DNA of 64,000 nucleotides from NCBI GenBank assembly GCA_050951325.1, contig JBMNIW010000001.1, positions 256,001 to 320,000 of the forward strand. The letters run 5' to 3'. The notes beneath the pieces were generated by a model. That model was not told where the DNA came from, did not search any database, and saw nothing but the letters and a program-made list of their open reading frames with translations. Shown here one piece after another: positions 1,174 through 35,127 of this stretch (position 1 is the first letter of the stretch; each line of letters begins with the position of its first letter). The translations under genes and the position numbers were made by a program. The DNA comes from Clostridia bacterium. Lineage in GTDB: Bacteria; Bacillota; Clostridia; UBA1212; DUPL01.

Positions 1174-1904
1174 TAAATATGCTAACAGCTGATATTGCAG
1201 CATGTTGTAAGACTCTTCGTTTAAGTCGCAATATCGTGGATATGTCGGATAAGATTCAGGCGGACAGTCATCAGGAATATCTGCTTAAATTGCTTCAATC
1301 AGAAATCTCACATCGTGATATAGTGAGAAAGAATAAACGATTAAACAAAGCTGGGTTTTATACTATTAAGACATTTGAAAGCTTTAGGTTTGACGAAGTG
1401 ACACTTCCTAGTGGAATAACTCCTGAGTACCTGAGAGAGTGTGAGTTTATCAAAAACAAAACCAATATCGTCATGTATGGCAATGTTGGCACAGGCAAGA
1501 CACATCTTTCAATAGCATTGGGTGTTGAGGCCTGTAAAAGAGGGTTTGAGGTAGCTTTTTACAGGACAACTGCGCTTGTTAACAAGCTTGCAGAGCACAA
1601 GAAAGCTGGAACCTTATCCACTTTCCTTAAGAAACTAAGCAAAGCAGACCTACTGATCTGTGATGAGTGGGGATACGTCCCACTCGACCGGATTGGTGCG
1701 CAACTTCTCTTTGAGGTAATATCAGAGCGATACGAAAACAAGTCTGTAATTATTAATACCAACATTGAGTTTTCAAGGTGGGTAAACATACTTTACGACG
1801 AGCAAATGACAGGTGCAATAATAGATCGAATTCTACATCATTGTCACTTGCTTTTATTCTCTGGTCAAAGCCACAGGATGCGTGAAGCAAGACTTGGCCA
1901 TTGA
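1170..1904 (+). CDS. istB: IS21 helper ATPase IstB
   Basis: Walker A GNVGTGKT, Walker B LLICDEWGY, IIDRILHH. Confidence 0.95.
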   Translation: MINMLTADIAACCKTLRLSRNIVDMSDKIQADSHQEYLLKLLQSEISHRDIVRKNKRLNKAGFYTIKTFESFRFDEVTLPSGITPEYLRECEFIKNKTNIVMYGNVGTGKTHLSIALGVEACKRGFEVAFYRTTALVNKLAEHKKAGTLSTFLKKLSKADLLICDEWGYVPLDRIGAQLLFEVISERYENKSVIINTNIEFSRWVNILYDEQMTGAIIDRILHHCHLLLFSGQSHRMREARLGH

Positions 1905-2087
1905 AAACTTAGTAAAAAGGTTGCGGGGAAACCATAAAAATTCCCCACCCGGTGCCTGGGGAAAAATTTTTGCAAAACTGGGGAATTTACTATTGCAAAA
2001 AACACCTTGTTGAGCATATTGTCTTTGGTGCATTCCTTCATCTTCTTTTTGCTTTGTTTGCATGGAAAATAACTATGCCCTAAGGGA

Positions 2088-2115
2088 AAGAGCCCGGTAA
2101 TATTGCCGGGCTCTT
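2088..2115. terminator. Intrinsic terminator hairpin
   Basis: AAGAGCCCGG-taatattg-CCGGGCTCTT between convergent genes. Confidence 0.7.
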
Positions 2116-2148
2116 GTTCATTTATTGTTAATTTTTATTATTATAAAG

Positions 2149-2790
2149 TCAAAATTCATTTACCTTTGATGCTTTTACTGCTCCTAAAAACTCCCTAGGT
2201 ACTTGTGCAAACTGTAACTTTTGAAAGTCCTCCTTAAACATAAAGGACTTTAAAATGGGTAAGGATTCTTCCAAATCATTTTGTCTATATCCAATTGCTG
2301 GGTCTGTCAGTAAAGCAAATCCAAAATCTGAATACAATTTTATTGCTCGGAAACTAGATGGGTGTGTATGAAGAAAAACAGGATATTCATTCTCTGGAAT
2401 GCTTTTCATAACAATAGAAAGCAGTGCCCTTCCAATGCCCAATCCTTCGTATTCTTTCATAACTTTAAACCAATGTATCGTAGTGATTTTATCGTAGGCC
2501 TTCCATGCAAAACAGGTTCCGATAGGAGCATTGTTTTCATCACAAACAAATAAACACTTTTTAAAAAATAAATCTTCTTTGCTAGCATAGACATCATTGA
2601 AATACTTTGTCATAAAATCACTATATTGCTCAGCAGTCTTTTCATCATCAAAGGGCATCTTTTTCCATATATCTAATTCATCCCTTCTACAGGTTCTTAC
2701 ATAATATCCATCTGGCAACTCAGCAAGGGCACTTGTATTCAATTTTTTACACATCATAAATAGATTCTTATCGGGAATTTCTTTTTCCAT
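2149..2790 (-). CDS. GNAT family N-acetyltransferase
   Basis: Motif A EYEGLGIGRALL, motif B RAIKLYSDFGF; start MEKEIP after AAGGAG. Confidence 0.85.
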   Translation of the reverse strand: MEKEIPDKNLFMMCKKLNTSALAELPDGYYVRTCRRDELDIWKKMPFDDEKTAEQYSDFMTKYFNDVYASKEDLFFKKCLFVCDENNAPIGTCFAWKAYDKITTIHWFKVMKEYEGLGIGRALLSIVMKSIPENEYPVFLHTHPSSFRAIKLYSDFGFALLTDPAIGYRQNDLEESLPILKSFMFKEDFQKLQFAQVPREFLGAVKASKVNEF

Positions 2791-2844
2791 AACACAAACT
2801 CCTTTATAATGAGAACTAGTTTTAATAAACTGAACTTCAGCCAC

Positions 2845-3150
2845 TATTTAAAATTTGATGTTTCTTCCGCTACAATGTCCCGAGTAACGCCAAATTTGTC
2901 ATAAATGGCTGCATGAAATGTGCTTTAATATGTTTTAGTGGGTGGAAGCGAAATCTCAGCATTTTCATTCACCCATCAAATATTTTCTATGCTTCTGTAA
3001 AAATAGGTACTGCTGCAGTTAGCCTAACTATATTCCCCTTTTCTAAAATGTCAATTTCATCAGCAAACCAAAAAGTTATTCCGCAGATTTGCATTTCAGC
3101 ATATAAAATCCAGGTGCTTATATCAGATGGCGGAATCTTAATACCAGGAT
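2845..3150 (-). pseudogene. VOC/PhnB-like glyoxalase-fold protein remnant
   Basis: Manual translation ILYAEMQICGITFWFADE...HAAIYDKFGVTRDIV with internal stops/frameshift. Confidence 0.55.
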
Positions 3151-5925: not shown

Positions 5926-7230
5926 CTAAAATGCCTCTGGCACGACTGAAAACATAGAGTAGAGTTCCTTCTTGTCAAACTCTCCAATAGGTATCCCATT
6001 TATTAAAATCTCACCTTCTGTAACGTCAAAAAGACCAGTTATCAGTTTTACCAAGGTACTCTTGCCCGCTCCATTTATACCAACAACCGCCAGTTTTTCA
6101 CCTTTTCGAATCTTTAGATTGAGATTCTTGAATATGTAATTGTCGGTATTGGGATATTTAAAGCTTACATTTCTAAGCTCTATTTCAAGAGTGTTTTCGA
6201 CAACAGCCTTCCTTTCTCCACCTTTAACTCCCAGATCCTTGTCCATAAACTCATAAAAATCATGAACATACTGTCCCTCGTTTATAATAAAGGAGGTGTT
6301 GTCAATGAGGGTTTTCAGCATCATTGACAGGCTGACTATTGCGGACAAATACATCAAAAAGTCCGCTATGGGCATGCCATTCAAAGCCTTTACAACCAGT
6401 ATTCCATAAGTAGCCGCATCACTTATCAAAAGAGCTGCCAGACCTGCAAATCCAATCAGGAACTCCTTGTTCCTAATAATTCTGTGAATACCTATGTACG
6501 CCTTTATTTCATCATCATAGTTTCTCAGTATTCTATCCTTTAGATTATGTATCCTTATGTCTTTACCAAAACCAAAGTCATGGGTTGTGTTGTAATAGTA
6601 GCGGTTTCTTCTTTCCGCATGAGAAAGCTCTTTCCTCTTCTCATAATGGTAGTTGTGTACTTTTCTGTTTATCCACATTACACAAAATACATTCAGGATG
6701 TGGGCAAGAAGCACAAATATGTTCAGCCCCCCAATAAACACAACAAGAACAATGGAAGTCAATAGCACTGCAAAGCTTTCAAACAGTTTGTGGTATACAC
6801 CTTCTATACCGTTGTTGTTCGAACTTACAGCTTCAAAGGCCTTGTTGTTAACTTCGAAGAAGGACGCATCCTCCATGTATTTGTAATCCACACTAAGAAG
6901 CTTGTCATACATGTCCCGGATATAGTCGATACGGAGTCTTGTAATACGTGGATATGCATAGTCATGAGAATAGGCTTTTACAAATCCAAATATGGCAGTC
7001 AGGACAAAGTACATTGAAACAATCAAAATAATATTCCGTACCTTTGCACTTCCGCCCATGGAAAGCTCTTCAATCAGGAACTTCGGAAGCATGATTGCAA
7101 ACAATGGATAAACAGCGGCAGTTATTGTGTAAATGGTAAAGTACACAAATATTGTTCTGTTTTGTGCGTGCATGTTCTTTATTAGTCCTTTTATCACCTT
7201 ATGTATTGGATACGCTACAAATTTCTTCAC
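5926..7230 (-). pseudogene. ABC exporter permease/ATPase, 3'-truncated
   Basis: TM domain plus Walker A GINGAGKST; stops at FSVVPEAF before Q-loop, signature and Walker B. Confidence 0.85.
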
Positions 7231-8324
7231 AGAATTTCCTCCTTGTTTTGGTTTTCCATGGCCAGGTCAACAATCTTGTATCCTATGCTGCCAAGCCTGT
7301 TTGTATTTAGTTGATAATATACCCTTCTTGCACTCTCATCCCCTACCGTGATAGACACAATCTCCGACTGCATAAGGATATCCATGTGATGGGACACGGT
7401 TGCAGGTGTAAGGTTAACGTTATCGGCAATTTCCTTCATGTACATGTCCTTTTCCTTAAGCAACCTAATAATCTTAATTCTTGTTGGATCGCTTAAAGCT
7501 TTTAAAGCGCTTACCATGCTCTCGTCACTTACCTTGTTCTTCTCTCTCATGTCATATAGCTTGAGAAAATACATGCCCAGAATAAAAAACTCCACATCGC
7601 TTTTCAGCTCCACCCTCAAGCTGTTAAAGCCAAAGACGGATACATAGATATTGGATTTCTGCCTGCATGTATTTTTCAAATTTACAAAAGAATCAAAGAT
7701 GTCAAACACATCAGGTACCTCATTCAGAAGACTCCATGCATCCATGTAGTCGTCTTCGATAATGTGGAAATGTCTTTTACATGCAGGAACACACTTATCA
7801 ACAAGCTCCCACATTCCTCTGACATTTTCATATCTTTTGTTGTACAACTTTATAAGTTTCACCTTCAGTGAGTCATCAATGCTTTTGTCCACCAGGTTTG
7901 TGACAAGACTCTGCAAATCCTCTATCTCAACATCCTTGTCCTTGCCGGCATGGTCGTATTCAAGGAATATATCGGTAATGTATTCCTTTACCACATCGTC
8001 AATATCCTCATCTGTCAAATCATTCTTGGCACCCATAAGTGTAACCAAACCAAGAGCAATACCTCCCTTGGGTTCGGACATGTTTTCAATAGGCTCAAAA
8101 AGCCAATGATACGACGGATTACTGTCATACAAAGGCAGTATATCCTCAAGGACAGCCTTTTTGTACAGTTTATACTTTTCAAAGAAAGATTCCATCTTTT
8201 CCTTGGTCATTCCAAACTTTGTGTGGTTTGCGATTACCTTTTCCTCAGCTTCCATGTAGTATTCACATAAACAGGAAACCACTTCATATGCCCAAAATGG
8301 TGATTTGTGTATTGCATAGTTCAT
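7227..8324 (-). CDS. ArsR/SmtB-family regulator with long N-terminal domain
   Basis: C-terminal LKALSDPTRIKIIRLL...LTPATVSHHM; GGAGG before ATG 8324; overlaps ABC gene start. Confidence 0.85.
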   Translation of the reverse strand: MNYAIHKSPFWAYEVVSCLCEYYMEAEEKVIANHTKFGMTKEKMESFFEKYKLYKKAVLEDILPLYDSNPSYHWLFEPIENMSEPKGGIALGLVTLMGAKNDLTDEDIDDVVKEYITDIFLEYDHAGKDKDVEIEDLQSLVTNLVDKSIDDSLKVKLIKLYNKRYENVRGMWELVDKCVPACKRHFHIIEDDYMDAWSLLNEVPDVFDIFDSFVNLKNTCRQKSNIYVSVFGFNSLRVELKSDVEFFILGMYFLKLYDMREKNKVSDESMVSALKALSDPTRIKIIRLLKEKDMYMKEIADNVNLTPATVSHHMDILMQSEIVSITVGDESARRVYYQLNTNRLGSIGYKIVDLAMENQNKEEIL

Positions 8325-9343: not shown

Positions 9344-10273
9344 ATGACAATTTTAAAAAAGACAATAATACTAATTTCGACTCTTTTACTTGCAGCATTA
9401 ATCTCCTGCAGTACTCAAAAACATACCACTCTTTACCAACTGCCAACACAAACCCCTCAGCAGATGATGTCGTATGTAATAATTACAAAAGACGGTCACT
9501 GCATTGTAATTGATGGTGGAAACAAGGGAGATGCTGATTATCTTCTGAAGTTTATTAAAGAAAAGACCAATATGAAAAAGCCGGTAATTGATGCCTGGAT
9601 CTTTTCCCATGTGCACTCAGACCATGTCAGTACATTCATTGCACTTGCCAATCTCAAACGAGACGAGTTTACCGTAAAGAAAATATATTACAACTTCCCC
9701 AGTGCTGAGTTCATATCGAAGTATGACTATACTGATACCACCGTACTGACAATGAGTGATTTTTATGCTGCTGTTGATAAACTCGAAGGAACAGAAGTAA
9801 TTATTCCACAGAACAACGACAAGTTTACCATAGGAGATGTGGAAGTTGAAATACTAATGGTTCAGGACGAAGAAGCAGACTTTATGAAAAACTCCAATGT
9901 GGTTAACAACAGCTCCATGATTTTCAGGTTGACTGTAGAAAACCAGACGGTTCTCTTCCTTGGTGATTCTGGTGTGGAGCAAGGAAACGAGCTTTTAAAA
10001 ATGCACGGAGACAATTTAAAAAGCGACATGGTCCAAATGTCGCACCACGGACAAAATGGCGTAAGCAAGGAAGTTTACGAAGCCATCAATCCCAGCGCAT
10101 GTTTATGGCCTACACCCAAATGGCTGTATGAAAACGATAGTGGCGGCGGGTACAACTCAGGTCCATGGAAGACCCTTGAAGTCAGAGAATGGATGGAGGA
10201 ATTGGGTGTCAAACACCACTACGTCGACATGGACGGTTTGCATGAAATAAGGTTTCCGTTTAAGTTTGATTGA
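9344..10273 (+). CDS. Metallo-beta-lactamase-fold (ComEC/Rec2-like) lipoprotein
   Basis: Lipobox LISC; IDGG, SHVHSDH, FLGD, SHHG motifs. Confidence 0.85.
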   Translation: MTILKKTIILISTLLLAALISCSTQKHTTLYQLPTQTPQQMMSYVIITKDGHCIVIDGGNKGDADYLLKFIKEKTNMKKPVIDAWIFSHVHSDHVSTFIALANLKRDEFTVKKIYYNFPSAEFISKYDYTDTTVLTMSDFYAAVDKLEGTEVIIPQNNDKFTIGDVEVEILMVQDEEADFMKNSNVVNNSSMIFRLTVENQTVLFLGDSGVEQGNELLKMHGDNLKSDMVQMSHHGQNGVSKEVYEAINPSACLWPTPKWLYENDSGGGYNSGPWKTLEVREWMEELGVKHHYVDMDGLHEIRFPFKFD

Positions 10274-10275
10274 TG

Positions 10276-10306
10276 CAAAAAGAGCTGCGTTTTCGCAGCT
10301 CTTTTT
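10276..10306. terminator. Bidirectional intrinsic terminator
   Basis: AAAAAGAGCTGCG-tttt-CGCAGCTCTTTTT. Confidence 0.8.
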
Positions 10307-10307
10307 C

Positions 10308-13355
<3,048 letters not shown>

Positions 13356-14301: not shown

Positions 14302-16227
14302 TCACGCTTTATTGCTGAACAGGAAGTTAAATCTGCCATATGGTGCAGCATCACCATCCTGGTAGAAGGTCCATATTCCATTATCCATGTTGCAGTTATC
14401 CGCCCACTTGAATTGAAGATTCACTATGTCCATTGACGAAATGCCAATTTTTGAAGCGGGAACTTTCAACATAAGCTTGTTTCCTTCAACCCTCATATCA
14501 ACTTCTGCTACCTTTTCCCACTTGTTATCTCCTGCATATTTTTCCAAAACCGCCTTATTCTTTGACGGGGGAGCAGTCCTGTTTACGACAAAATCATAGC
14601 CATTCCACTTCTTTGTTTTTGAAAAACCAGTGGCAAGAAACAGCGTCATCCAGTTGTCCGTAGGGTCTGATATGTCCTCTACTGTATCTACATAAAAGTA
14701 GAAGTGCTTGTCATCCCTTGCTACTTTCATGACACTTATGTCATTTCTTCCTGTGTTGTTTTCATACTCTGATATATCAATATTTTTCCATTTGTCATAC
14801 AAGGATACATCTCTAATGCTCGTATCATTTATGAAGTCCTTGTAGACTGCTGTAGCATCATCCCATTGAGACCAGTCGCCATTTATGTCAACTGTTGTTT
14901 TCTTGCCAACATTTACCCTGCCGTTTGTTCCTTTGTATTGCCTGATAAAATTGCACATTTGCATGTAATAATTGTCCCCATAACCACCTGTCATGGGTTC
15001 TATGTCCCTGCTGTGGTCAATGTTGAAATTGTCCACAAACATGCACATATCACGAGGATCGTCCGTATATTTTCCTAATTGATTATCTTTACTCCATCCT
15101 CTGTCCGAATCCCAATTGCCTGCAATCCATTCATTCCATCCGCAGATGAATATCATAGGCGGATCCTTCTCAATTGCATATTCAAACTGTCTGGCAAAAT
15201 TGATACCGTATAGATACGAATCCTCCTCTCCTTCTATCCAATGACGGTTTCTTTTTCCATCCCAGTTTCTTGAATGATCTTTTGTCTCCCATAAATACCC
15301 ATAAACAGAGTTGAAGGTTTCACATATTTCAGCTACGGATACAGTCATCATCCATGTGTTTCCATTCTCATCTTTCATCTCCGTTGGCCAGTCTGAAAAA
15401 TCTATCCACGGAAACATGTTTTTCTTCTTGTTAAGATCATACTTAAAGGAACCATCTGGCATAACATCCAAAACTTCAAATGCATTCATGTATGAATCCT
15501 TCATAGTGAAGAATTCCTTTGCCCTTTTACTGATACTAGAATCCCTCATATCCCCTACAATTAAGGGTTTGCCGTCGTAGCAGTACCAAAGATGCTCATA
15601 CTCGGGATGTGCCATGTATATGTCATTGTATATCCTCTCTATTGTTGCTCCTGTGTTTGTATGTGTATAATAGCTTACCTTCGGAACCTTCCAGCCTTGC
15701 CTTGAGTACTCATCAAGTATCCTGAACAAGAGAAGTGATTGCTCCTCATAAATGTATGTATTTGTGGCATCTATCATGAGGTAGTCTATATCAGCCTCAA
15801 CAAACATCTGAACATGCTTTCTTATTACATAATCATCCAGCATTGTATAGTAGCTGAACAAGGGTTTTCCCCACCAATGGCTTGCTCCATACAGAGGCGA
15901 CCCTCCTGCTCTAGCCCATTCTTTCTTAGACCTAGGCGCATCAGGATTTTTCTTCAAAATTTCGGTATTGTCAAACACCTGATGCGAACCATGGGAGCCC
16001 GTCCACAAAAAATAGAATATTCCTACTTCCCGATCTTTTCTCTCTACGTCCAAAGCAACTGCTCGACCGAGGTCGTCAATACAGAAGGTTGTACCATTTA
16101 TATCAACATATTCTCCTTTGTACTTTTTCCATGTTGTAATGTCATCATAATTGTATTTGCGATTGCAGCCAAACATACTTCCCACCATAATTGTAGATAT
16201 AACGAGAAAAGCAGTTGCTTTTTTCAT
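14302..16227 (-). CDS. GH99/GH71-like putative glycoside hydrolase, lipoprotein
   Basis: Lipobox MFGC; DDLGR, GIFYFLW, HWWGKPLFSYY, DATN, GWNEW, SRDIEP; C-terminal beta domain. Confidence 0.7.
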   Translation of the reverse strand: MKKATAFLVISTIMVGSMFGCNRKYNYDDITTWKKYKGEYVDINGTTFCIDDLGRAVALDVERKDREVGIFYFLWTGSHGSHQVFDNTEILKKNPDAPRSKKEWARAGGSPLYGASHWWGKPLFSYYTMLDDYVIRKHVQMFVEADIDYLMIDATNTYIYEEQSLLLFRILDEYSRQGWKVPKVSYYTHTNTGATIERIYNDIYMAHPEYEHLWYCYDGKPLIVGDMRDSSISKRAKEFFTMKDSYMNAFEVLDVMPDGSFKYDLNKKKNMFPWIDFSDWPTEMKDENGNTWMMTVSVAEICETFNSVYGYLWETKDHSRNWDGKRNRHWIEGEEDSYLYGINFARQFEYAIEKDPPMIFICGWNEWIAGNWDSDRGWSKDNQLGKYTDDPRDMCMFVDNFNIDHSRDIEPMTGGYGDNYYMQMCNFIRQYKGTNGRVNVGKKTTVDINGDWSQWDDATAVYKDFINDTSIRDVSLYDKWKNIDISEYENNTGRNDISVMKVARDDKHFYFYVDTVEDISDPTDNWMTLFLATGFSKTKKWNGYDFVVNRTAPPSKNKAVLEKYAGDNKWEKVAEVDMRVEGNKLMLKVPASKIGISSMDIVNLQFKWADNCNMDNGIWTFYQDGDAAPYGRFNFLFSNKA

Positions 16228-25325: not shown

Positions 25326-26210
25326 CTATCTGTATTTAATAACTACCTCGTCAACAATTGTCTTTGCAAAGTGGTTGAACAGTTTCAAAACACCCGTTTG
25401 GTCTTTTAGATTGTTTGCTGCCTTGTATATTTCATTGCCCTCGCCATCGTAAACAATTAGTTCGTCACCAACCATGTCAACGTGCATGAATAGTTCATCA
25501 TCTGCATAGTAGTATACAAGCCCGTTTGCATCAACGATTGTAAGTTTGTGTGTTTCCTTGAAACTAACCGGAACGTTTATCTTGCATGCTCCCTTTGGCC
25601 AGTGTGCTGGTACCCCATGATAGAGAACCAGTTCATTACTCTCAGTAACCGATAGATACAAACCACTATCCAAATCAGAAGGCTTGTAATCTTCGCCGCC
25701 AGGCTCATACACCCTTATACCTACAATGCATCCCATCCATACTTCCTGGTGAGAATCAGGATATGAGGTTTGAAAAGTTATGTGGTACTCATACTGGCTA
25801 ATAGTCTCATCAAAGTCACAGTATACCCCAGGCGCATAAGTTTGGGCTGCATCGAACCATTCATCAGTAGTTCCAATGTAGCTGAGGTAGAGCCTGTCAT
25901 CTATGATGCCATAATATTTTTGGTATCTCACAATGGCTTCAGGGCTGTACTGACCATCTTCAAAGTTATCTTCGAAAACCACGATAGCATCTTCTTGAGG
26001 TTTTCCAAGCTGGCTTTCATCAAGCTTTGGTAAACTTTCTGTAGGTTCGGGAGTCTCTTCAGGCTCCTTGGTGGTTGTAACTTCTTTAGTTTCAGAAGGA
26101 GTATTCTGCGGCTCCTTCGTTGTACCGGGTGTGTTTTGCTTGTTGCAGCTAATAAACACAAGAGACACCATTCCAATCAATATTAAAAGCAAAATACGTT
26201 TTATCCTCAT
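25326..26210 (-). CDS. Lipoprotein with uncharacterised locus-specific beta domain
   Basis: Lipobox FISC, Thr/Pro linker; WMGCIVGIRV, SGLYL, YHG..WPKGA, NNLKDQTG, FNH motifs shared with 28059, 31311, 32945. Confidence 0.8.
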   Translation of the reverse strand: MRIKRILLLILIGMVSLVFISCNKQNTPGTTKEPQNTPSETKEVTTTKEPEETPEPTESLPKLDESQLGKPQEDAIVVFEDNFEDGQYSPEAIVRYQKYYGIIDDRLYLSYIGTTDEWFDAAQTYAPGVYCDFDETISQYEYHITFQTSYPDSHQEVWMGCIVGIRVYEPGGEDYKPSDLDSGLYLSVTESNELVLYHGVPAHWPKGACKINVPVSFKETHKLTIVDANGLVYYYADDELFMHVDMVGDELIVYDGEGNEIYKAANNLKDQTGVLKLFNHFAKTIVDEVVIKYR

Positions 26211-28058: not shown

Positions 28059-28949
28059 CTAACACCTTTCACTTACATTTTTTAAACGCATGAATACTGC
28101 AAAAAGTACAAAAGCTGCAATTATCATGGACAAAACAGCCATGAAAGAGTTGTCACCTGTTTCAGGATTTCCAGGCTCCGGCTCCGGAGCAGTAGCCACA
28201 TTGTAGATTTCAATGGAGTCAACTATGGTTTTTGTACTGTGATTGAATATCTTGAAATATCCAACCTGGTCTTTCAAATTGTTGTCGGCTTCATAGATAA
28301 CATTGCTGTCCTTGTCATAAGCAACAAGTTTGTCTCCTGAAATTTTTATGCTCAAGAACAACACTCTGGTTTCTTCTGGTGTATCCATGTAATACGAGAT
28401 TATATCATTGTCATCAACAATGTAAAGGGTATTGGTCTCTGCAAAGTTAGCCGGAATGTCAACAGTAAAAGCTCCTCCAGGCCAGCCACCGCCTCCATGA
28501 TAGACAACAGCCTTGTTGGTGTGGGCAATTCCTATATACAGTCCAGAGTTGGAATCCGCTGGCTTGAAATTGTTTTTGTCGTTGCCTGCAACCCTAATAC
28601 CCACCATGCATGAATACCAAAGGTCATTTCTGAAACCGTTACTCTTGAATTTGACAACATACTCATATTTCTCATGCTCCTCGTCAAACTCAAACTTTTC
28701 GTTGGCAATATATGCTTCAGCAGCATCTCCCCAGTCATTGTCGTTGGTGTTGAAGCCCATATAAAGCTGTTCATTCTCAATCTTGTGCCAAGCATTAAAG
28801 CGGAAAATAGCTTTAGGATTTGCCTGGTTGCCTGAAAAGTCATCAACATATATCAAATCTTTGGATGATGATGCTGTCACACCATTTGTAAATGCAAAAA
28901 ACATAACAAGAACAAGCATATAAAAAACAATATTTTTAGATTTAAACAT
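28059..28949 (-). CDS. Sortase-type (NPETG) surface protein with locus-specific beta domain
   Basis: Signal peptide; PEPEPG-NPETGD + hydrophobic helix + basic residues. Confidence 0.8.
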   Translation of the reverse strand: MFKSKNIVFYMLVLVMFFAFTNGVTASSSKDLIYVDDFSGNQANPKAIFRFNAWHKIENEQLYMGFNTNDNDWGDAAEAYIANEKFEFDEEHEKYEYVVKFKSNGFRNDLWYSCMVGIRVAGNDKNNFKPADSNSGLYIGIAHTNKAVVYHGGGGWPGGAFTVDIPANFAETNTLYIVDDNDIISYYMDTPEETRVLFLSIKISGDKLVAYDKDSNVIYEADNNLKDQVGYFKIFNHSTKTIVDSIEIYNVATAPEPEPGNPETGDNSFMAVLSMIIAAFVLFAVFMRLKNVSERC

Positions 28950-28972: not shown

Positions 28973-29224
28973 AACTGCTATAAGATTAACAAAAAGCAAA
29001 TCGCTTGTCTTCTGATATATTGAGTGTATTTTAGATATATTGACATTTCTTTTAATATTCTGTATCATTAAAAACATCTACAGCGAATATGGATGTGAAA
29101 AATATGTCAGAAAACACTAATTCAGGCTATATTATGTACGTATCAAACGCCAAATCAGATACAAACCAGATATTCAATATATCTAAACCCAAGGAAATCT
29201 TCAGATTCAGACACGCCCATGCCT
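28973..29224 (+). repeat. 252-bp direct repeat, copy 1 (promoter + 5' fragment of the AraC gene)
   Basis: Aligns without gaps to 31195..31446 (14 mismatches counted by eye). Confidence 0.95.
29014..29043. promoter_or_regulatory. GATATATTGA-N10-GATATATTGA candidate AraC operator
   Basis: Direct repeat with 20-bp period; also at 31236 and 34304. Confidence 0.65.
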
Positions 29225-31194
29225 CGATAGTTTGACACTTGCTCACATATCCGATTTTCAGAAAAGCTCATAATATGAGCTTTTTTTATATATTTTTTGT
29301 CAAATTTCCCTAGTTAGCTATTGCGTAATGTCTCGTAATGTGATATAATATCAGGTATTGGAGGTGTCATTATGGCTATTAGAGTATCAATATCTAAATC
29401 AAAAAATGCCAAGTCATACTATCTGATAGAAGATGTTGTGAAAAATGGAAAGAGAACAACGCAGATAAGAGAAAAACTTGGCACTCATGAGGAACTGCTT
29501 AAAGAACTTAACGGACAAGATCCGTATGAATGGGCTAAGAAATACGCCGAGGAACTAAATAGAAAAGAAAAAGAAAACGAACAGGAAAAGAATATTATCG
29601 TTAAGTATTCCCCCACCAAGCAAATTATGAAGAATAAACAGAATACATTTAATGGCGGTTACCTGTTCTTGCAGAAAATCTATTATGAACTGGGTTTGCA
29701 TAAGATTTGCGATGAAATATCTGAAAAATACAAGTTTGAATATGACTTGAACTCAATACTCTCGAGACTACTATACAGTAGAATAATATACCCTTCCTCA
29801 AAACTATCTACGTATAAATTATCAAAAAGATTTTTTGAGCAGCCCAATTTTGACTTGCATCATATATACCGGGCCTTAAGTGTTTTGGCGGAAGAAAATG
29901 ATTTCATACAAGCCACAATCTATGAGAACAGTAAAAAAATATGCAATAGAAATACCAAAATACTATACTACGACTGTACAAACTATTATTTTGAAATTGA
30001 TTACGAGGAAGATGACAAGAGGTATGGTTATGGGAAGGGTCATAAGCCAAATCCCATAGTGCAAATGGGACTGTTCATGGACGGAAGCGGCATCCCTCTT
30101 GCTTTTAGCATCAATAGAGGTAATGCCAATGAACAAACAACAATGGTACCACTGGAAGAAAAGATACTATCTGACTTTAATCTGGCAAAATTTATTGTTT
30201 GTACAGATGCCGGATTGTCATCAACAGCAAACCGGAAATTCAACGACAAAGGCGACAGGGCTTTTATCACAACCCAGTCTGTAAAAAAACTAAAAGAACA
30301 CTTGAAAAACTGGGCCTTGAAACCGACGGGATGGAGTTTGCCAAATGACAGTACAGAATATGACATCAGCAAACTTGATGAAGAAGAATACAAGGACAAG
30401 GTTTTTTACAAAGATCGTTGGATTAAGGAAGACGGTTTGGAACAGAAACTAATAGTGACATTTTCATTCAAGTACAGAAAATATCAACAGCAAAAGCGCC
30501 AAGTTCATATCGAAAAGGCATTAAGCTTGCTTGAAACAGAACCGCAAAAATCAAACAAGAAGCGAAACAGCGACTACAAACGTTTTATCAAAAGCGTTAA
30601 TTGCACAGAAAGTGGAGAGATAGCCGATAATGAAGTTTATTATATTGACGAAGAACTTATTGCCAACGAGCAGAAATATGATGGGTTCTATGCGGTATGC
30701 ACAAACCTTGATGATGATGCTTCAGAAATTGCAAAAATCAACCATAGACGCTGGGAAATAGAAGAATGTTTTAGAATAATGAAAAGTGAGTTCAAAGCCA
30801 GACCTGTTCATTTGAAAGACAAGGATAGGATACTTGCACATTTTGCTACATGTTTTATGGCATTAATTCTGTATAGAATACTCGAGAAAAGACTTGAAGA
30901 AAAATATACATGCTGTGAAATTATTCAGTGTTTGAGAGATATGAATTTTACAGACGAAAATGGGTATGGATACAAACCTTGTTATACAAGAACCGACTTG
31001 ACTGATGATTTGCATAACGTTTTCGGATTCAGGACTGACTATGAAATAATTACAGAGAAAGAGATGAAAAAAATATTCAAGCTCACTAAAAAGTAAAAAC
31101 ATTACGCATTTTTATTGACACATCAAGAAGTCTACAAACCCACTAAATACAAGGGTTTGTAGACTTTTATCTTTCTACAAGTGTCAAAGATGAG
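29225..31194 (+). mobile_element. IS1634-family element (copy B)
   Basis: TIRs CGATAGTTTGACACTTG / CAAGTGTCAAAGATGAG; bounded exactly by the 252-bp repeat. Confidence 0.88.
29372..31096 (+). CDS. IS1634-family DDE transposase
   Basis: YYDCTNYYF, VQMGL, CTDAGL, DGFYAVCTN, RWEIEECFRIMK; TTGCGT-17-TATAAT promoter at 29321-29349. Confidence 0.92.
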   Translation: MAIRVSISKSKNAKSYYLIEDVVKNGKRTTQIREKLGTHEELLKELNGQDPYEWAKKYAEELNRKEKENEQEKNIIVKYSPTKQIMKNKQNTFNGGYLFLQKIYYELGLHKICDEISEKYKFEYDLNSILSRLLYSRIIYPSSKLSTYKLSKRFFEQPNFDLHHIYRALSVLAEENDFIQATIYENSKKICNRNTKILYYDCTNYYFEIDYEEDDKRYGYGKGHKPNPIVQMGLFMDGSGIPLAFSINRGNANEQTTMVPLEEKILSDFNLAKFIVCTDAGLSSTANRKFNDKGDRAFITTQSVKKLKEHLKNWALKPTGWSLPNDSTEYDISKLDEEEYKDKVFYKDRWIKEDGLEQKLIVTFSFKYRKYQQQKRQVHIEKALSLLETEPQKSNKKRNSDYKRFIKSVNCTESGEIADNEVYYIDEELIANEQKYDGFYAVCTNLDDDASEIAKINHRRWEIEECFRIMKSEFKARPVHLKDKDRILAHFATCFMALILYRILEKRLEEKYTCCEIIQCLRDMNFTDENGYGYKPCYTRTDLTDDLHNVFGFRTDYEIITEKEMKKIFKLTKK

Positions 31195-31446
31195 AACTGC
31201 TATAAGATTAACAAAAAGCAAATCGCTTGTCTTCTGATATATTGAGTGTATTTTAGATATATTGACATTTCTTTTAATATTCTGTATTATTTAAAACATC
31301 TACAGCGAATATGGATGTGAAAATTATGTCAGAAAACTCTAACTCCGGCTATATTTTATACGTATCAAACGCCAAATCAGATACAAGCCAAATAATCAAT
31401 ATATCTAAACCTCAGGAAATCTTCAGATTCAGACACGCCCACGCCT
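31195..31446 (+). repeat. 252-bp direct repeat, copy 2
   Basis: See 28973..29224. Confidence 0.95.
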
Positions 31447-32828
31447 TCATAGACAACAAGCTGTATCTTTGTCATAAGTTCGGTACCTGGCAGAAGAACG
31501 CAGAAACTTTCACACCGGATTGCTACTGTGAAGCAGAAAAAGGCAGAACGGAATACATATATAGAATCAACTTTTCAGTACAAGACTCCATGCCGTATCA
31601 TAACATAAAATACAAGTGGACTGCTTGTTTCATAGGAGCAAGAGTCTCTTCGCCCCATGGAGATGAAGCAAACCCATTGCATAAAGACTGCGGCTTTTAC
31701 ATAGCTATAGGCGACAGCAATAAAGCTGTAATATACCACGGCAAGGAGAGAACCTGGCCTCATGGCTGTTGTACAGTAAAACTTCCTGAAAACTTTTCAA
31801 CACCGCATACATTAATAGTAACTGATGACGGTGAAACTATTACCTATTCCATGATACTTTCCACAGGAGAAGAGAGAAATATTCTCAAAGCTTGCCTATC
31901 GGGCGAAGATATTCTTGTTTACGACAGCGGAAACAATCTTGTGTACAAGGAAAAAAACAATCTCAGAAACCGCAAGGGTGGCTACTTCAAGGTATTCAAC
32001 CACGAAGCCCAGACAATCATATCCTCTGTAAGCATACATAACAAAGAACTTAAAACAGGATGTCTGAAGATGGTATACAAAGACAGTTTTTCATCTTTTC
32101 GTACCAGTGAGGGCTTTAAACTTTTCTACATAACTCAAGGAGAAAGCAACTGCCTCATAAACCAGAACCTGTTGTCCCTCGAAAAAGACGACATTTTACT
32201 GATTTCGGCTTACGATACATATTTAATGAACGAAAACATGCCCATGACAAAGGTGCAGTTCAACAAGGAATTTTTATACAGATACTTCAGTCACGATGTG
32301 GTGGACAATGTGCTTACGTGCTTTAACAACAAGCAAATACGATTAAAAGGTGAAAAACTCTCGCTAATAAGGACAAAACTGCAGAATCTTAAAGAGTCTG
32401 AAAATGAGGATGACAGAATACCGGCCTTCATTCATCTGTATGAGATTCTGTTCTTGCTGTCAAGAGAGAAAAAGGGAGTTATTAGGGATGCAAGTCACAA
32501 CCCATATGTGTACAAAATTATTAACTACATAAATAAATATTACTCCACAATTTTTACTGTCGATGACATCGCAGAATATTGTGGAGTATCAAAACATCAT
32601 TTATGTCGTGTATTTAAAGAGAATATGAATATGACCATAATTTCATTCCTTAATCAAGCAAAAGTAAACAATGCATGCAAGGAACTTGTTGAAACGGATA
32701 ATCAAATCCTGCAGATTGCACTCAATAACGGTTTCAATTCAGCCTCCTACTTCAATTATGTATTTAAAAAGCAGACAGGTATATCACCGATTGAGTACAG
32801 GAACATACATACAAAGAAATCTAAATAA
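31311..32828 (+). CDS. AraC-family regulator with N-terminal locus-specific beta domain
   Basis: aa ~14-245 align with the surface proteins; then cupin-like region and HTH IALNNGFNSASYFNYVFKK; no signal peptide. Confidence 0.9.
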   Translation: MDVKIMSENSNSGYILYVSNAKSDTSQIINISKPQEIFRFRHAHAFIDNKLYLCHKFGTWQKNAETFTPDCYCEAEKGRTEYIYRINFSVQDSMPYHNIKYKWTACFIGARVSSPHGDEANPLHKDCGFYIAIGDSNKAVIYHGKERTWPHGCCTVKLPENFSTPHTLIVTDDGETITYSMILSTGEERNILKACLSGEDILVYDSGNNLVYKEKNNLRNRKGGYFKVFNHEAQTIISSVSIHNKELKTGCLKMVYKDSFSSFRTSEGFKLFYITQGESNCLINQNLLSLEKDDILLISAYDTYLMNENMPMTKVQFNKEFLYRYFSHDVVDNVLTCFNNKQIRLKGEKLSLIRTKLQNLKESENEDDRIPAFIHLYEILFLLSREKKGVIRDASHNPYVYKIINYINKYYSTIFTVDDIAEYCGVSKHHLCRVFKENMNMTIISFLNQAKVNNACKELVETDNQILQIALNNGFNSASYFNYVFKKQTGISPIEYRNIHTKKSK

Positions 32829-32934
32829 GGTCTTCGAAGTCAACACCTATGAAATCCAGACCACTTACTGTAACTTCCTCTTCCGTTTCAAATATCACAA
32901 CATCCATTTGCGGATCCTCGTATATCTTTTTCAT
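32821..32934 (-). CDS. 37-aa acidic peptide MKKIYEDPQMDVVIFETEEEVTVSGLDFIGVDFEDLI (not in ORF track)
   Basis: TAAGGAGGAGCTT-ATG: strong RBS fused to the upstream stop codon; YxxP leader-like motif. Confidence 0.75.
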   Translation of the reverse strand: MKKIYEDPQMDVVIFETEEEVTVSGLDFIGVDFEDLI

Positions 32935-32944
32935 AAGCTCCTCC

Positions 32945-34240
32945 TTACTCAAACCATGACCTTACAGCCGGATCAAGGCTGTCTGCTTCGTTGTTTTCAA
33001 CTATTTCCTGGTATACCCTTGAAAGCGAATTCTCCTGAACAGAGGTATATAAATAAATTATATTTCCATCGGAATCTTCACATTCAAGCCATACTCTCGC
33101 CAGAATAATTGTTTCCTTTGCAGTATCAGGTATGTTATATATGTAAATGGATTTGTACATATTACCATTCACATCAACATCAATCATCTCCGGCTGTGCA
33201 ACCAATCCATCAATCTTGCCAACCTGTTCCAAAACCATTATATTTGGATCTGACAATTTATCTTTCAGTATGACAAGTCCACCTAAATCTTTGACAGTGT
33301 ACTCTTTACCCTCATAGTCAAATACTTCACCAACACCCATTACATCAAAGCAGAATCTCAGACCCTGTCTCAAATCACTATCTACTATCTCGCCACTTTT
33401 GGTTCTGAAGGGTACCAGTGTTGATCTTATCTGGGAACCTGAATATGATGCAGCTGCTTCCGGAGCAGTTGGAACAGAATCATCCACACTGTATATCTCT
33501 ATGGAATCAACAATGGTTTTTGTACTATGGCTGAAAATCTTAAAGTACCCCGTCTGCCCCTTCAGATTGTTTGCCGCTTCATAAATAACATTGTCGTCCT
33601 TATCATATGCAGTAAGCATGTCTCCCGATATTTTAATTGACAGAAACAACACCCTGGGTTCTTCAGGTGTATCCATGTAGTACCTGACAGTGTCATTGTC
33701 ATCAACTATGTAAAGTGTATTAGTCTCCGCAAAGTTGGCTGGAATGTCAATACTAAAAGCTCCTCCAGGCCAACCGCCACTACCATGATAGACAACTGCT
33801 TTATTGGTGTGGGCAATTCCTACATACAGTCCAGAGTTGGCATCTCCTGGTTTAAAATCGTTCTTGTCGTTACCTGCAACCCTAATGCCTACCATGCATG
33901 AGTACCAAAGGTCATTTCTAAAGCCATTACTGTTGAATTTGACTACATACTCATATTTCTTATTCTCTTCATCAAAATCCAACCTTTGGTTTGCAATATA
34001 TGCTTCAGCAGCTTCTCCCCAGTCGTTGTCATTGATGTTAAAACCCATATACAATTGCTCATTTTCTATCTTGTGCCATGCATTAAAACGGAATATTGCC
34101 TTTGGATTGGCTTTATTATCCTCAAACCCATCACAATACACCAGTGTTTTTGTTGACGAGGCAGTTATGCCGCTTGTCAAACTGAATAATATAGCCAGGA
34201 TTAAAACAAATATGATAGTCTTCTTCCCTTTTACAAACAT
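32945..34240 (-). CDS. Secreted protein: locus-specific beta domain + C-terminal GSQIR...GLRF domain
   Basis: N-terminal ~250 aa closely similar to 28059..28949; C-terminus unrelated, without TM or sortase signal. Confidence 0.82.
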   Translation of the reverse strand: MFVKGKKTIIFVLILAILFSLTSGITASSTKTLVYCDGFEDNKANPKAIFRFNAWHKIENEQLYMGFNINDNDWGEAAEAYIANQRLDFDEENKKYEYVVKFNSNGFRNDLWYSCMVGIRVAGNDKNDFKPGDANSGLYVGIAHTNKAVVYHGSGGWPGGAFSIDIPANFAETNTLYIVDDNDTVRYYMDTPEEPRVLFLSIKISGDMLTAYDKDDNVIYEAANNLKGQTGYFKIFSHSTKTIVDSIEIYSVDDSVPTAPEAAASYSGSQIRSTLVPFRTKSGEIVDSDLRQGLRFCFDVMGVGEVFDYEGKEYTVKDLGGLVILKDKLSDPNIMVLEQVGKIDGLVAQPEMIDVDVNGNMYKSIYIYNIPDTAKETIILARVWLECEDSDGNIIYLYTSVQENSLSRVYQEIVENNEADSLDPAVRSWFE

Positions 34241-34303
34241 ATCCAAATCTCTCCTTTTTATCTGGTAAGCAAAGATTATCAAAAAGATTTCTATGTGTCT
34301 TCT

Positions 34304-34333
34304 GATATATTGAGGGAGATTTAGATATATTGA
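34304..34333. promoter_or_regulatory. GATATATTGA-N10-GATATATTGA candidate AraC operator
   Basis: Boxes identical to 29014 while the spacer differs. Confidence 0.65.
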
Positions 34334-34395
34334 TTTTTTTCTATGTTATATAGCAAAAACAATAAGAATTAATGTGATACGATAATACTGACTTA

Positions 34396-35127
34396 TCAAT
34401 ATTTCTGAACCGGCTCTTCTGAGCTTATTATTCTAAATAGATTTTCAACCTCATCATCAGTTAAATGTCTCCATTTGCCTACAGGCAAGGTGCCAAGCTC
34501 TATATTCATAATTCTAATGCGTTTCAAATTGACAACCTTGTAACTCAGTTTGGTACACATTCTCCTTATTTGCCTGTTCAATCCTTGTGTAAGAATTATT
34601 TTAAATGCTCTGTTATTAATCTTCACAACCTTGCAGGGATTGGTTATCGCATACTCATTTCTAACTGGATTGTATATCTTAACGCCCTTTGACATTTTTT
34701 TCAGGAACTCATCCGTTATATCCTTGTCAACGGTCACAACATACTCCTTTTCATTATTGTTGGTGCTTCTTAAAACCTTGTTAACTATTCCACCGTCATT
34801 GGTAAGAAGAATCAACCCTTCGGAATCCTTGTCGAGTCTTCCTATAGGGAAGATGCGTTCAGGATAGTTTACAAAATCAACAATGTTTCCCTCTATATGT
34901 CTTTCCGTTGTGCATACAACACCCCTTGGTTTGTTCAGTGCGATATATACATATTCGCTTTTACCTTTAAGAAGTTTCCCATTTACCTCTACCACATCAT
35001 CCGGACTCACATCAGTACCAATTACTGCAACTGTATTATTTACCTTGACCTTCCCCTGTTTAATAAGTTCATCAGCCTGCCTTCTTGAGCATAGACCAGT
35101 TGAACTAATATATCTATTTAATCTCAT
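34396..35127 (-). CDS. rRNA pseudouridine synthase, RsuA/RluF family
   Basis: S4 domain RLNRYIS..GLCSRRQAD, GRLDKDSEGL, GLNRQIRRM. Confidence 0.92.
   Translation of the reverse strand: MRLNRYISSTGLCSRRQADELIKQGKVKVNNTVAVIGTDVSPDDVVEVNGKLLKGKSEYVYIALNKPRGVVCTTERHIEGNIVDFVNYPERIFPIGRLDKDSEGLILLTNDGGIVNKVLRSTNNNEKEYVVTVDKDITDEFLKKMSKGVKIYNPVRNEYAITNPCKVVKINNRAFKIILTQGLNRQIRRMCTKLSYKVVNLKRIRIMNIELGTLPVGKWRHLTDDEVENLFRIISSEEPVQKY

Follow-up and report, generated by a model that had tools for sequence, protein, structure and literature searches.

What does a 37-residue open reading frame (ORF) encode when it lies immediately behind the gene of a secreted protein, and does its product act with that protein? 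The question is raised by a 64,000-nucleotide stretch of a Clostridia bacterium genome (assembly GCA_050951325.1, contig JBMNIW010000001.1, positions 256,001 to 320,000; from here on the window, with position 1 as its first letter). There the ORF follows, on the minus strand, the gene 32945..34240, the product of which ends in a C-terminal domain that we name after its GSQIR and GLRF motifs. Sequence comparisons showed a peptide gene that is conserved, under selection and coupled to the gene in front of it. We consider it reasonably probable that the peptide is the ribosomal precursor of a pathway for ribosomally synthesised peptides with post-translational modifications (RiPPs), a clostridial variant of the pathway to the linear polyphosphorylated peptides (LPPs) of Bacilli. 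The genome comprises 12 contigs (3.08 Mb) and is 96% complete. Coordinates are collected in Table 1; C, L and G mark our handles for contigs, loci and related genomes.

A small gene coupled to the gene of a secreted protein

The ORF reads MKKIYEDPQMDVVIFETEEEVTVSGLDFIGVDFEDLI, 37 residues followed by a stop. Its ATG lies 3 nt past a GGAGGAG ribosome site, and 10 nt separate the upstream stop codon from this start. The ribosome site abuts the upstream TAA, and overlaps it if read as AAGGAGG, so that the strong site placed at this stop by an earlier, sequence-only reading was found. We detected neither a promoter-like site between the two genes nor an intrinsic terminator 3' of the peptide gene, and the fold of the 131 nt downstream is ordinary (z -1.37). 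The peptide has an isoelectric point (pI) of about 4.05 and no signal peptide. Its exact sequence is present as an unnamed predicted protein (P0001) in the protein collection, and also in the ESM Atlas. Searching the protein collection with the 43-residue frame that starts from a TTG returned nothing besides the peptide itself, Pfam and NCBIfam gave no family match over the peptide, and the sequence search of the PDB with the peptide profile produced 0 matches at E<=10. A double-glycine leader and an AgrD-like peptide, both considered, were set aside because the spacing of the conserved residues seemed unsuitable.

Five peptide ORFs of 34-37 residues, including the window copy, are present in this genome, each behind a purine-rich GGAG-type ribosome site. 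All four genomic copies of the GSQIR/GLRF domain are directly trailed by such an ORF, and a metagenome scan with the domain profile gave 11 loci, 10 of them with a peptide ORF (8 new sequences, while L042 and L048 repeat this genome). The same profile found no relative in the scan of genome contigs. The sequence-only reading had expected homologous small ORFs behind GLRF-domain genes, and they are there; its module of peptide and domain stands as a conserved gene pair, and in the way the peptide tail follows the domain type. The junctions in the paralogs and the metagenome loci are like that of the window. The fifth peptide ORF comes ~105 nt after a metallophosphoesterase-like gene that does not encode the domain (L005 1498..1605 and 1713..3062; C1 ~192.5-194.1 kb). 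Since one distant representative of the domain (P0039) combines Metallophos with it, loss of the domain is suggested at this locus. On the metagenome contig that lacks a peptide ORF (L041), the domain is identical to that of the window and the sequence past the stop, after position 3013, is unrelated; judged by its sequence, the contig is a rearranged strain or an assembly chimera.

In the alignment of 13 peptides (A5), P8, F15, E16, T22, S24, G30, F33 and L36 are invariant, and Y5 is nearly so (one F). The mean proportion of nonsynonymous differences (pN) was 0.27 and that of synonymous differences (pS) 0.71, with pN<pS in 78 of the 78 pairs. The ORF is short and is covered by no protein family, as would suit a chance reading frame in an intergenic tail; its conservation across paralogs and metagenome relatives, the pN and pS values, the GGAG-type sites and the fixed position refute that explanation, to which we assign a negligible probability. 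Metatranscriptome contigs from one anaerobic-digester sample cross the gene junction (X16 = 32600-33723, X15 = 32857-34172), which indicates presence in RNA libraries and is not proof of one transcript, DNA carry-over being possible; in the RNA contigs X17 and X19, parts of the stretch are uncovered. Metagenomes from sludge, bioreactors and anaerobic digesters also contain DNA nearly identical to 32600-34400, in 20 rows belonging to 15 studies; 6 rows are flagged as possible sources, and 6 are RNA libraries.

Beyond this genome, a profile of the five paralogs matched small ORFs in 19 of 60 related genomes, over positions 1-25 only. These ORFs are 32-58 residues long and have M-K-x-x-(Y/F)-E-x-(P/A)-x-h-E-h-h-x-F-x-x-x-D-V-I-T-x-S-G in common; the tails vary and are acidic, many of them Gly-rich. 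In 24 of the 27 related loci the peptide ORF closely follows the end of a long open frame (at 13-41 nt in 23 and 155 nt in one), and the other three comprise one ORF behind other peptides, one at a contig edge and one with a 343-nt gap. A 41-sequence profile matched 23 of the order's 45 genomes, with as many as 10 matches in a single genome, and the leader type was seen in 15 of 150 genomes sampled evenly from the class. In the 41 peptides, which come from 20 or more genomes, conservation of M1, F15 and S24 reaches at least 90%, and the YxxP position holds Y/F and P/A in most. The peptide gene lies almost always behind the gene of a large, apparently secreted protein.

Regular expressions, with a manual correction of L015, L024 and L044, sorted the tails of 48 distinct peptides into classes. 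Of 13 ...DFEDL(I) tails, 12 stand behind a GSQIR-type domain and one belongs to the domain-less copy. Ten ...LP(D/E)x(F/L) tails follow a different C-terminal region, which ends in YSxxxY and a helix; of two more, one is located in a cluster and the other at another site. The ...FWxxEFG tail stands behind an 'IPES...RAYWE' domain, itself a weak match to the GSQIR profile (E 0.004). When the GSQIR domain was compared with the YSxxxY-helix region profile to profile, the probability was 2%, and we therefore treat the two as different domain types; both end in a helical pair. G032 and G037 each hold both the LP(D/E)x(F/L) and the FWxxEFG pairings, so lineage alone does not explain the match. We infer from these sequences a functional tie between the peptide tail and the upstream domain, the simplest form of which would be binding.

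A candidate maturation pathway and its known relatives

LPPs were reported from Bacilli by Popov et al. (Nat Commun 2026, PMC13381572). According to the main text of that paper, LPP clusters lie within capsule loci and encode a SipW-like peptidase (LppS), a discrete RiPP recognition element (RRE; LppB), an HprK-like kinase (LppK), an NTP transferase (LppN), an MsbA-like exporter (LppD) and one to three LppA precursors of 35-200 residues with the N-terminal motif YxxPxVLxHQxIxFETxxS. The RRE binds YxxP, LppS cuts after T-1, with F-3 and E-2 required, and LppK adds several phosphates to S3. The final structure and the biological role of LPPs are described there as still unknown.

Measured against this account, the window peptide has the YxxP motif, an F-E-small motif (F15-E16-(T/S/A/V)), a conserved Ser after it, and a length within the 35-200 residue range. 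By likeness to F-3/E-2/T-1 of LppA, the boundary between leader and core is inferred to follow residue 17. Moreover, the genome holds an RRE, an HprK-like kinase, a SipW-like peptidase, a PF14907 protein and an MsbA-like exporter, beside polysaccharide genes. They belong to one lpp-like cluster of this genome (L058 7072..14587, minus strand; C12 ~115.1-122.6 kb), which was found by searching the genome with the enzymes that adjoin the peptides in relatives. The sequence-only reading had found no RiPP maturase in the window, which is correct for the window proteins scanned and for the window only. Its alternative of an orphan precursor does not hold in the sense of missing maturases, these being encoded in trans on another contig. 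Its proposal of a RiPP-like precursor with a YxxP leader is borne out by the nearly invariant Y5 and invariant P8 (13 sequences), the PqqD-type RREs and LPP-type enzymes, and the contiguity of peptides and enzymes in relatives.

The 272-residue P-loop protein of the cluster carries an H..SGTGKST motif conserved in a 13-sequence alignment, and the first ten Foldseek matches of its model (mean pLDDT 79) were all HprK/P (E 1.7e-5 to 7.3e-5, with prob 1.00 for the first). The peptidase 7484..7954 has retained a GD motif as well as the Ser within GxSMxP and the His within VLHRI. Its neighbour 7072..7482 has D and R in place of the Ser and His that this peptidase and three relatives share, and it is probably an inactive paralog. 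Matches of both RREs in the PDB were weak and comprised TfuB1, PbaB1 and TbiB1 only; LppB (9x8z) was not among them. The 104-residue ORF between the radical SAM and kinase-like genes is a second candidate precursor of the YxxP type, located in the cluster, which may explain the presence of two RREs. A second, partial PF14907 match was observed in a 202-residue ORF (C12:723778-723981), ~5 kb upstream of the C12 peptide copy.

Peptides and enzymes are adjacent in some relatives. In G006, the order is a 738-residue LamG-type secreted protein, the peptide, a 235-residue HprK-like P-loop protein, a SipW-like peptidase and a PF14907 protein. In G020, an 811-residue secreted protein is followed by three peptides, an HprK-like P-loop protein, PqqD and a SipW-like peptidase. 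The leader is shared by a Cys-core peptide of G034, whose gene precedes that of a radical SAM/SPASM maturase. We also observed, behind a SPASM-like ORF (L093; G005:C32:7869-10961), an 89-residue peptide with a related N-terminus and Cys, which from its sequence is another RiPP type with a similar leader. Among the 45 genomes of the order, 20 have both the peptide (profile A8, E<=1e-3) and the HprK-like protein (E<=1e-5), 3 the peptide only, 4 the kinase only (G002, G004, G026, G036) and 18 neither. The peptide-only genomes are G005 (a weak match), G020 (with a divergent kinase-like gene beside the peptides) and G044 (66% complete). In most relatives the peptides and the kinase lie on different contigs, many of the assemblies being fragmented.

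In the pathway that we favour, the PqqD-type RRE would bind Y5xxP8, and the HprK-like kinase would phosphorylate S24 with one or more phosphates, to which the PF14907 enzyme may attach a sugar. The SipW-like peptidase would remove the leader, probably after F15-E16-T17, and the ABC exporter would release a short, very acidic peptide ending in ...DFEDLI. As the gene lies behind a secreted-protein gene and the tail changes with the class of the C-terminal domain, the mature peptide might, more tentatively, act with that domain outside the cell. The role for the PF14907 enzyme has a precedent in the sections of PMC6993621 on pseudomycoidin, a lasso peptide in which a PF14907-family enzyme (PsmN type) is needed to add a hexose to the phospho-Ser.

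Two further systems share components with the cluster. The phosphorylated lasso peptides paeninodin and pseudomycoidin, as far as PMC6993621 and the main text of PMC13381572 describe them, have a [Y/W]xxP leader, a discrete PqqD-type RRE, an HprK homologue acting on Ser, and PF14907. Unlike those systems, the present genome gave 0 matches at E<=0.01 to the lasso B2 peptidase family PF13471, the peptide has Y where W is typical of paeninodins, and no ring-forming pattern was seen, a cyclase not having been searched for. The lasso-type origin of the leader motif assumed by the sequence-only reading is thus unlikely, given that a 96% complete genome holds no PF13471 match. In terms of the SynChlorMet (SCM) cassette and HprK-related systems (NCBIfam TIGR04248-04251, TIGR04352), the best matches were ScmE for the radical SAM enzyme (E 5e-32), ScmD for one PqqD protein (E 1e-3) and ScmC for the P-loop protein (E 1.6e-4). 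All these scores are far below the curated cut-offs, meaning that the cluster is no SCM member and shares only the same general tool kit.

Weighing the explanations

Several observations weigh against an LPP-like precursor. The spacing from Y to F is 10 residues, compared with 13 in LppA, the Ser stands at F+9 instead of F+5, and the published consensus is not matched. None of the five copies lies in the cluster, whereas LPP precursors lie in theirs, as do the peptides of G006 and G020; the closest copy shares a contig with the cluster at a distance of ~600 kb, and the window copy is located on a different one. Because the leader consensus and the in-cluster position both differ, we class the peptide as a variant. 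Moreover, the core is conserved within the subfamily, in contrast to the 'highly variable C termini' that the main text of PMC13381572 ascribes to LPPs. The kinase assignment depends on weak sequence matches (TIGR04249, E 1.6e-4, below the cut-off) and on a fold match of a model with pLDDT 79. The 104-residue YxxP candidate could be the only substrate of the cluster. The genomes compared are kin and profile A8 was built from their own matches, so that the co-occurrence counts are descriptive and do not constitute a test. Other differences from LPPs concern context: four copies are coupled to genes of the GSQIR/GLRF domain, with a core that tracks the upstream domain; the cluster adds a radical SAM/SPASM enzyme, a second RRE and a degenerate second peptidase; and the lineage is clostridial, while the words Clostridia, surface, orphan and radical SAM do not appear in the main text of PMC13381572.

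A quite different possibility is that the peptide partners the GSQIR/GLRF domain directly and without modification (as an acidic chaperone, a docking strand or ligand, or an anchoring adaptor), with a YxxP likeness that has no function here. The strict pairing (4/4 in the genome, 10/11 metagenome loci) and the coupled translation would agree with this, as would conservation over the whole peptide and not the leader alone, a tail class that tracks the upstream domain class even within G032 and G037, and the position of the domain in place of the sorting-signal-like tail of the paralog. We nevertheless regard a direct partner as rather unlikely. The domain folds confidently alone in the model (pLDDT 96.0), so that it apparently lacks no strand; unlike 43/47 full-length domain proteins, which are apparently secreted, the peptide is without a signal peptide and would need a dedicated exporter; the fifth copy is located behind a gene without the domain; and the N-terminal half is common to peptides in front of RiPP enzymes. 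Alternatively, the peptide could be a RiPP precursor whose defining modification comes from the cluster's radical SAM/SPASM enzyme, such as a cross-link involving conserved aromatic tail residues, the kinase not being the key enzyme. The radical SAM/SPASM gene does lie beside two RREs, in G034 a Cys-core peptide with the same leader precedes a radical SAM/SPASM maturase, and the tails are rich in F/Y/W next to acidic residues. However, peptides of the window type have no Cys, their nearly invariant residue is a Ser, the 104-residue Cys precursor in the cluster is the more obvious substrate, and the G006 and G020 clusters have a kinase and a peptidase (in one case PF14907 too) with no radical SAM gene adjoining the peptides; this explanation appears distinctly improbable. 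Finally, many dispersed copies, up to 10 per genome, with translation coupled to specific cargo genes might be expected of leader-like decoys or regulators that occupy the RRE, or signal translation of the upstream gene, and yield no exported product. A pure RRE decoy would not be expected to conserve its C-terminal half like its leader, as these peptides do, and we see very little likelihood in this proposal.

If the peptide is an LPP-like precursor, its arrangement with secreted proteins could mean more. Each secreted protein would have its own RiPP 'tag'. A common LPP-type machinery would phosphorylate this tag, perhaps also glycosylate it, and after export the FN3-like domain of that protein would recognise it; if joined via phosphate to capsule or wall polysaccharide, the tag would provide a sortase-independent, peptide-addressed display. 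We offer this extension as speculative and improbable in its entirety. Were it true, the tail and domain classes would be matching addresses (DFEDLI/GSQIR, LPDxF/YSxxY-helix, FWxxEF/IPES), and the so far function-less LPP family would gain a role. Here, LPP-like precursors are tied one by one to genes of secreted carbohydrate-binding or carbohydrate-active proteins, a lead that is absent from the Bacilli clusters as presented in the main text of PMC13381572. The question of LPP function thereby becomes testable, as binding of the mature peptide to the domain and a resulting cell-surface location of the protein. A constant place behind genes of secreted proteins and a tail that follows the domain look undescribed: our literature searches returned no description of such peptides behind secreted-protein genes, and the supplementary tables of the LPP paper may hold such cases. 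With precursors dispersed as they are (up to 10 per genome), RiPP mining limited to clusters would miss them.

The C-terminal domain and the neighbouring genes

The GSQIR/GLRF domain is a rare, unnamed C-terminal domain, the profile of which found 71 representatives at E<=1e-3, and 15 at E<=1e-30, among 1.84 billion proteins. The match ends mostly at or near the protein C-terminus. Neither Pfam nor NCBIfam gave a family over the domain. Pfam also gave none in the 27 of the 71 representatives scanned against it, the N-terminal parts of which include F5/8 type C, CBM4_9, GH26, CE2/GDSL, BspA-type LRR (LRR_5), InlB B-repeat, 3-keto-disaccharide-hydrolase-like and Metallophos domains. By a crude ad hoc rule, 43 of 47 full-length representatives have a signal-peptide-like N-terminus. 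Within this genome, a clear signal peptide is present on the window protein only, and the C4 and C8 copies (L008, L009) are without one. The C12 copy (C12 ~727.2-729.3 kb) is split or frameshifted, with the domain in its own frame of 195-235 residues (L100 12763..13350) behind a 501-residue ORF (L100 11210..12715).

The AlphaFold2 model of the domain, computed from a 33-row alignment, has a pLDDT of 96.0 and consists of an FN3-like β-sandwich with two C-terminal helices. Foldseek with this model gave nothing at E<=1e-3, and the Atlas returned unnamed clusters only. The best VIA-align match had Z 8.0 (7zlv_i, phage T5 pb4; root-mean-square deviation 3.3, 114 residues aligned); numerous FN3 domains scored Z 6-7.8, and CBM56 scored Z 6.7. 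Values of Z 6-8 are also frequent among unrelated sandwiches, and the FN3-like arrangement is uninformative on function. Donor-strand completion of the domain by the peptide was considered and appears unlikely, the modelled domain being complete and confident alone. Charge complementarity was rejected as an argument for an interaction, both partners being acidic (domain pI 4.3-5.4).

With its varied N-terminal enzymes and binding domains, the conserved C-terminal module resembles, in general terms, the sorting and anchoring modules of LPXTG/sortase, type IX secretion system (T9SS) C-terminal domains and dockerins. No similarity to any of them was found, its fold is a generic FN3-like sandwich, and we know of no dedicated small gene behind the C-terminal module in LPXTG, T9SS or dockerin systems. 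Within the window, the domain stands in the place of a sorting-signal-like tail. As claimed from the sequence alone, the upstream protein ends in the GSQIR...GLRF...YNIP...ARVW domain at the point where its paralog 28059..28949 has such a tail: the two are 78% identical over residues 4-261 and diverge directly after 'TAPE', past which the paralog continues with NPETGD, a hydrophobic stretch and a basic tail (RLKNVSERC). The match of this tail to a sorting-signal model is below the cut-off (NF033073, E 0.046, 13.7 bits against a cut-off of 48). Counting from the ATG at 34240 gives the upstream protein 431 residues; a TTG at 34282 is a further candidate start. Its N-domain has no family match above cut-off, and distant relatives of this domain type match PF06439/PF13385 weakly.

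Table 1. Coordinates of the peptide gene, its neighbours in the window and the candidate enzyme cluster (L058; positions of that locus)
Feature	Coordinates	Strand	Evidence or remarks
37-residue peptide gene, proposed LPP-like precursor	window 32821..32934, including stop (32821..32823)	-	ORF, translation, alignment
Proposed leader, residues 1-17	32884..32934	-	Y5-x-x-P8 (RRE-binding motif); F15-E16-T17 (F-E-small, proposed cleavage site)
Proposed core, residues 18-37	32824..32883	-	T22, S24, tail G-(V/I)-D-F-E-D-L-I
S24 codon, proposed phospho-acceptor	32863..32865	-	conservation; putative function
Junction	32938..32947	-	TAA of upstream gene 32947..32945, GGAGGAG 32944..32938, ATG at 32934
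Secreted 431-residue protein	32945..34240	-	signal-peptide-like N-terminus, LamG/3-keto-disaccharide-hydrolase-like N-domain, C-terminal domain
GSQIR/GLRF C-terminal domain, residues 262-431	32948..33457	-	GSQIR, GLRF, YNIP, ARVW motifs; no Pfam family
Paralog of secreted protein	28059..28949	-	NPETG-type sorting-signal-like tail replaces C-terminal domain; no peptide copy behind
AraC-type regulator, convergent	31311..32828	+	stop overlaps 3' end of peptide ORF by 8 nt
Two Wzz/tyrosine-autokinase genes (polysaccharide chain-length)	L058 15991..17412, 14571..15998		adjacent to exporter
MsbA-like ABC exporter	L058 12809..14587	-	ABC_membrane + ABC_tran; best matches MsbA-related models
PF14907 nucleotidyltransferase-like	L058 11635..12885	-	E 2.3e-42
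Surface Ig-like protein	L058 10741..11631	-	
Two PqqD genes	L058 10452..10775, 10166..10540 (C12:118180-118660)	-	PF05402 above cut-off
Radical SAM/SPASM enzyme	L058 9094..10254	-	best NCBIfam ScmE, WgkB, below cut-off
104-residue ORF	L058 8793..9116 (C12:116793-117116)	-	starts MKMYEKPKLRFEE; several Cys; between radical SAM and kinase-like genes
272-residue P-loop protein, HprK-fold	L058 7969..8787	-	model and alignment
SipW-like peptidase, Ser/His/Asp kept	L058 7484..7954	-	PF00717 E 3.8e-6, above cut-off; TIGR02228 E 2.7e-7, below cut-off
Second SipW-like peptidase, degenerate	L058 7072..7482 (C12:115072-115482)	-	

The convergent AraC-type regulator is related to the secreted protein: its residues 30-244 (the N-terminal 215 residues) are 32% identical to the N-domain of that protein (E 4e-35). 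A sensor-like domain is thus common to an intracellular regulator and to extracellular paralogs, 25326..26210 and 28059..28949 among them. AraC-type genes adjoin the peptide in L003 and L039 too. A 258-nt direct repeat, 94% identical, is located at 28973-29230 and 31195-31452 and flanks a 574-residue transposase-like ORF (29372..31096, plus strand). The repeat contains ~48 codons from the start of the AraC-type gene together with the region upstream of it, with a fragment ORF (29089..29235) left behind. From the sequence, this looks like an insertion with duplication of the 5' end of the regulator gene.

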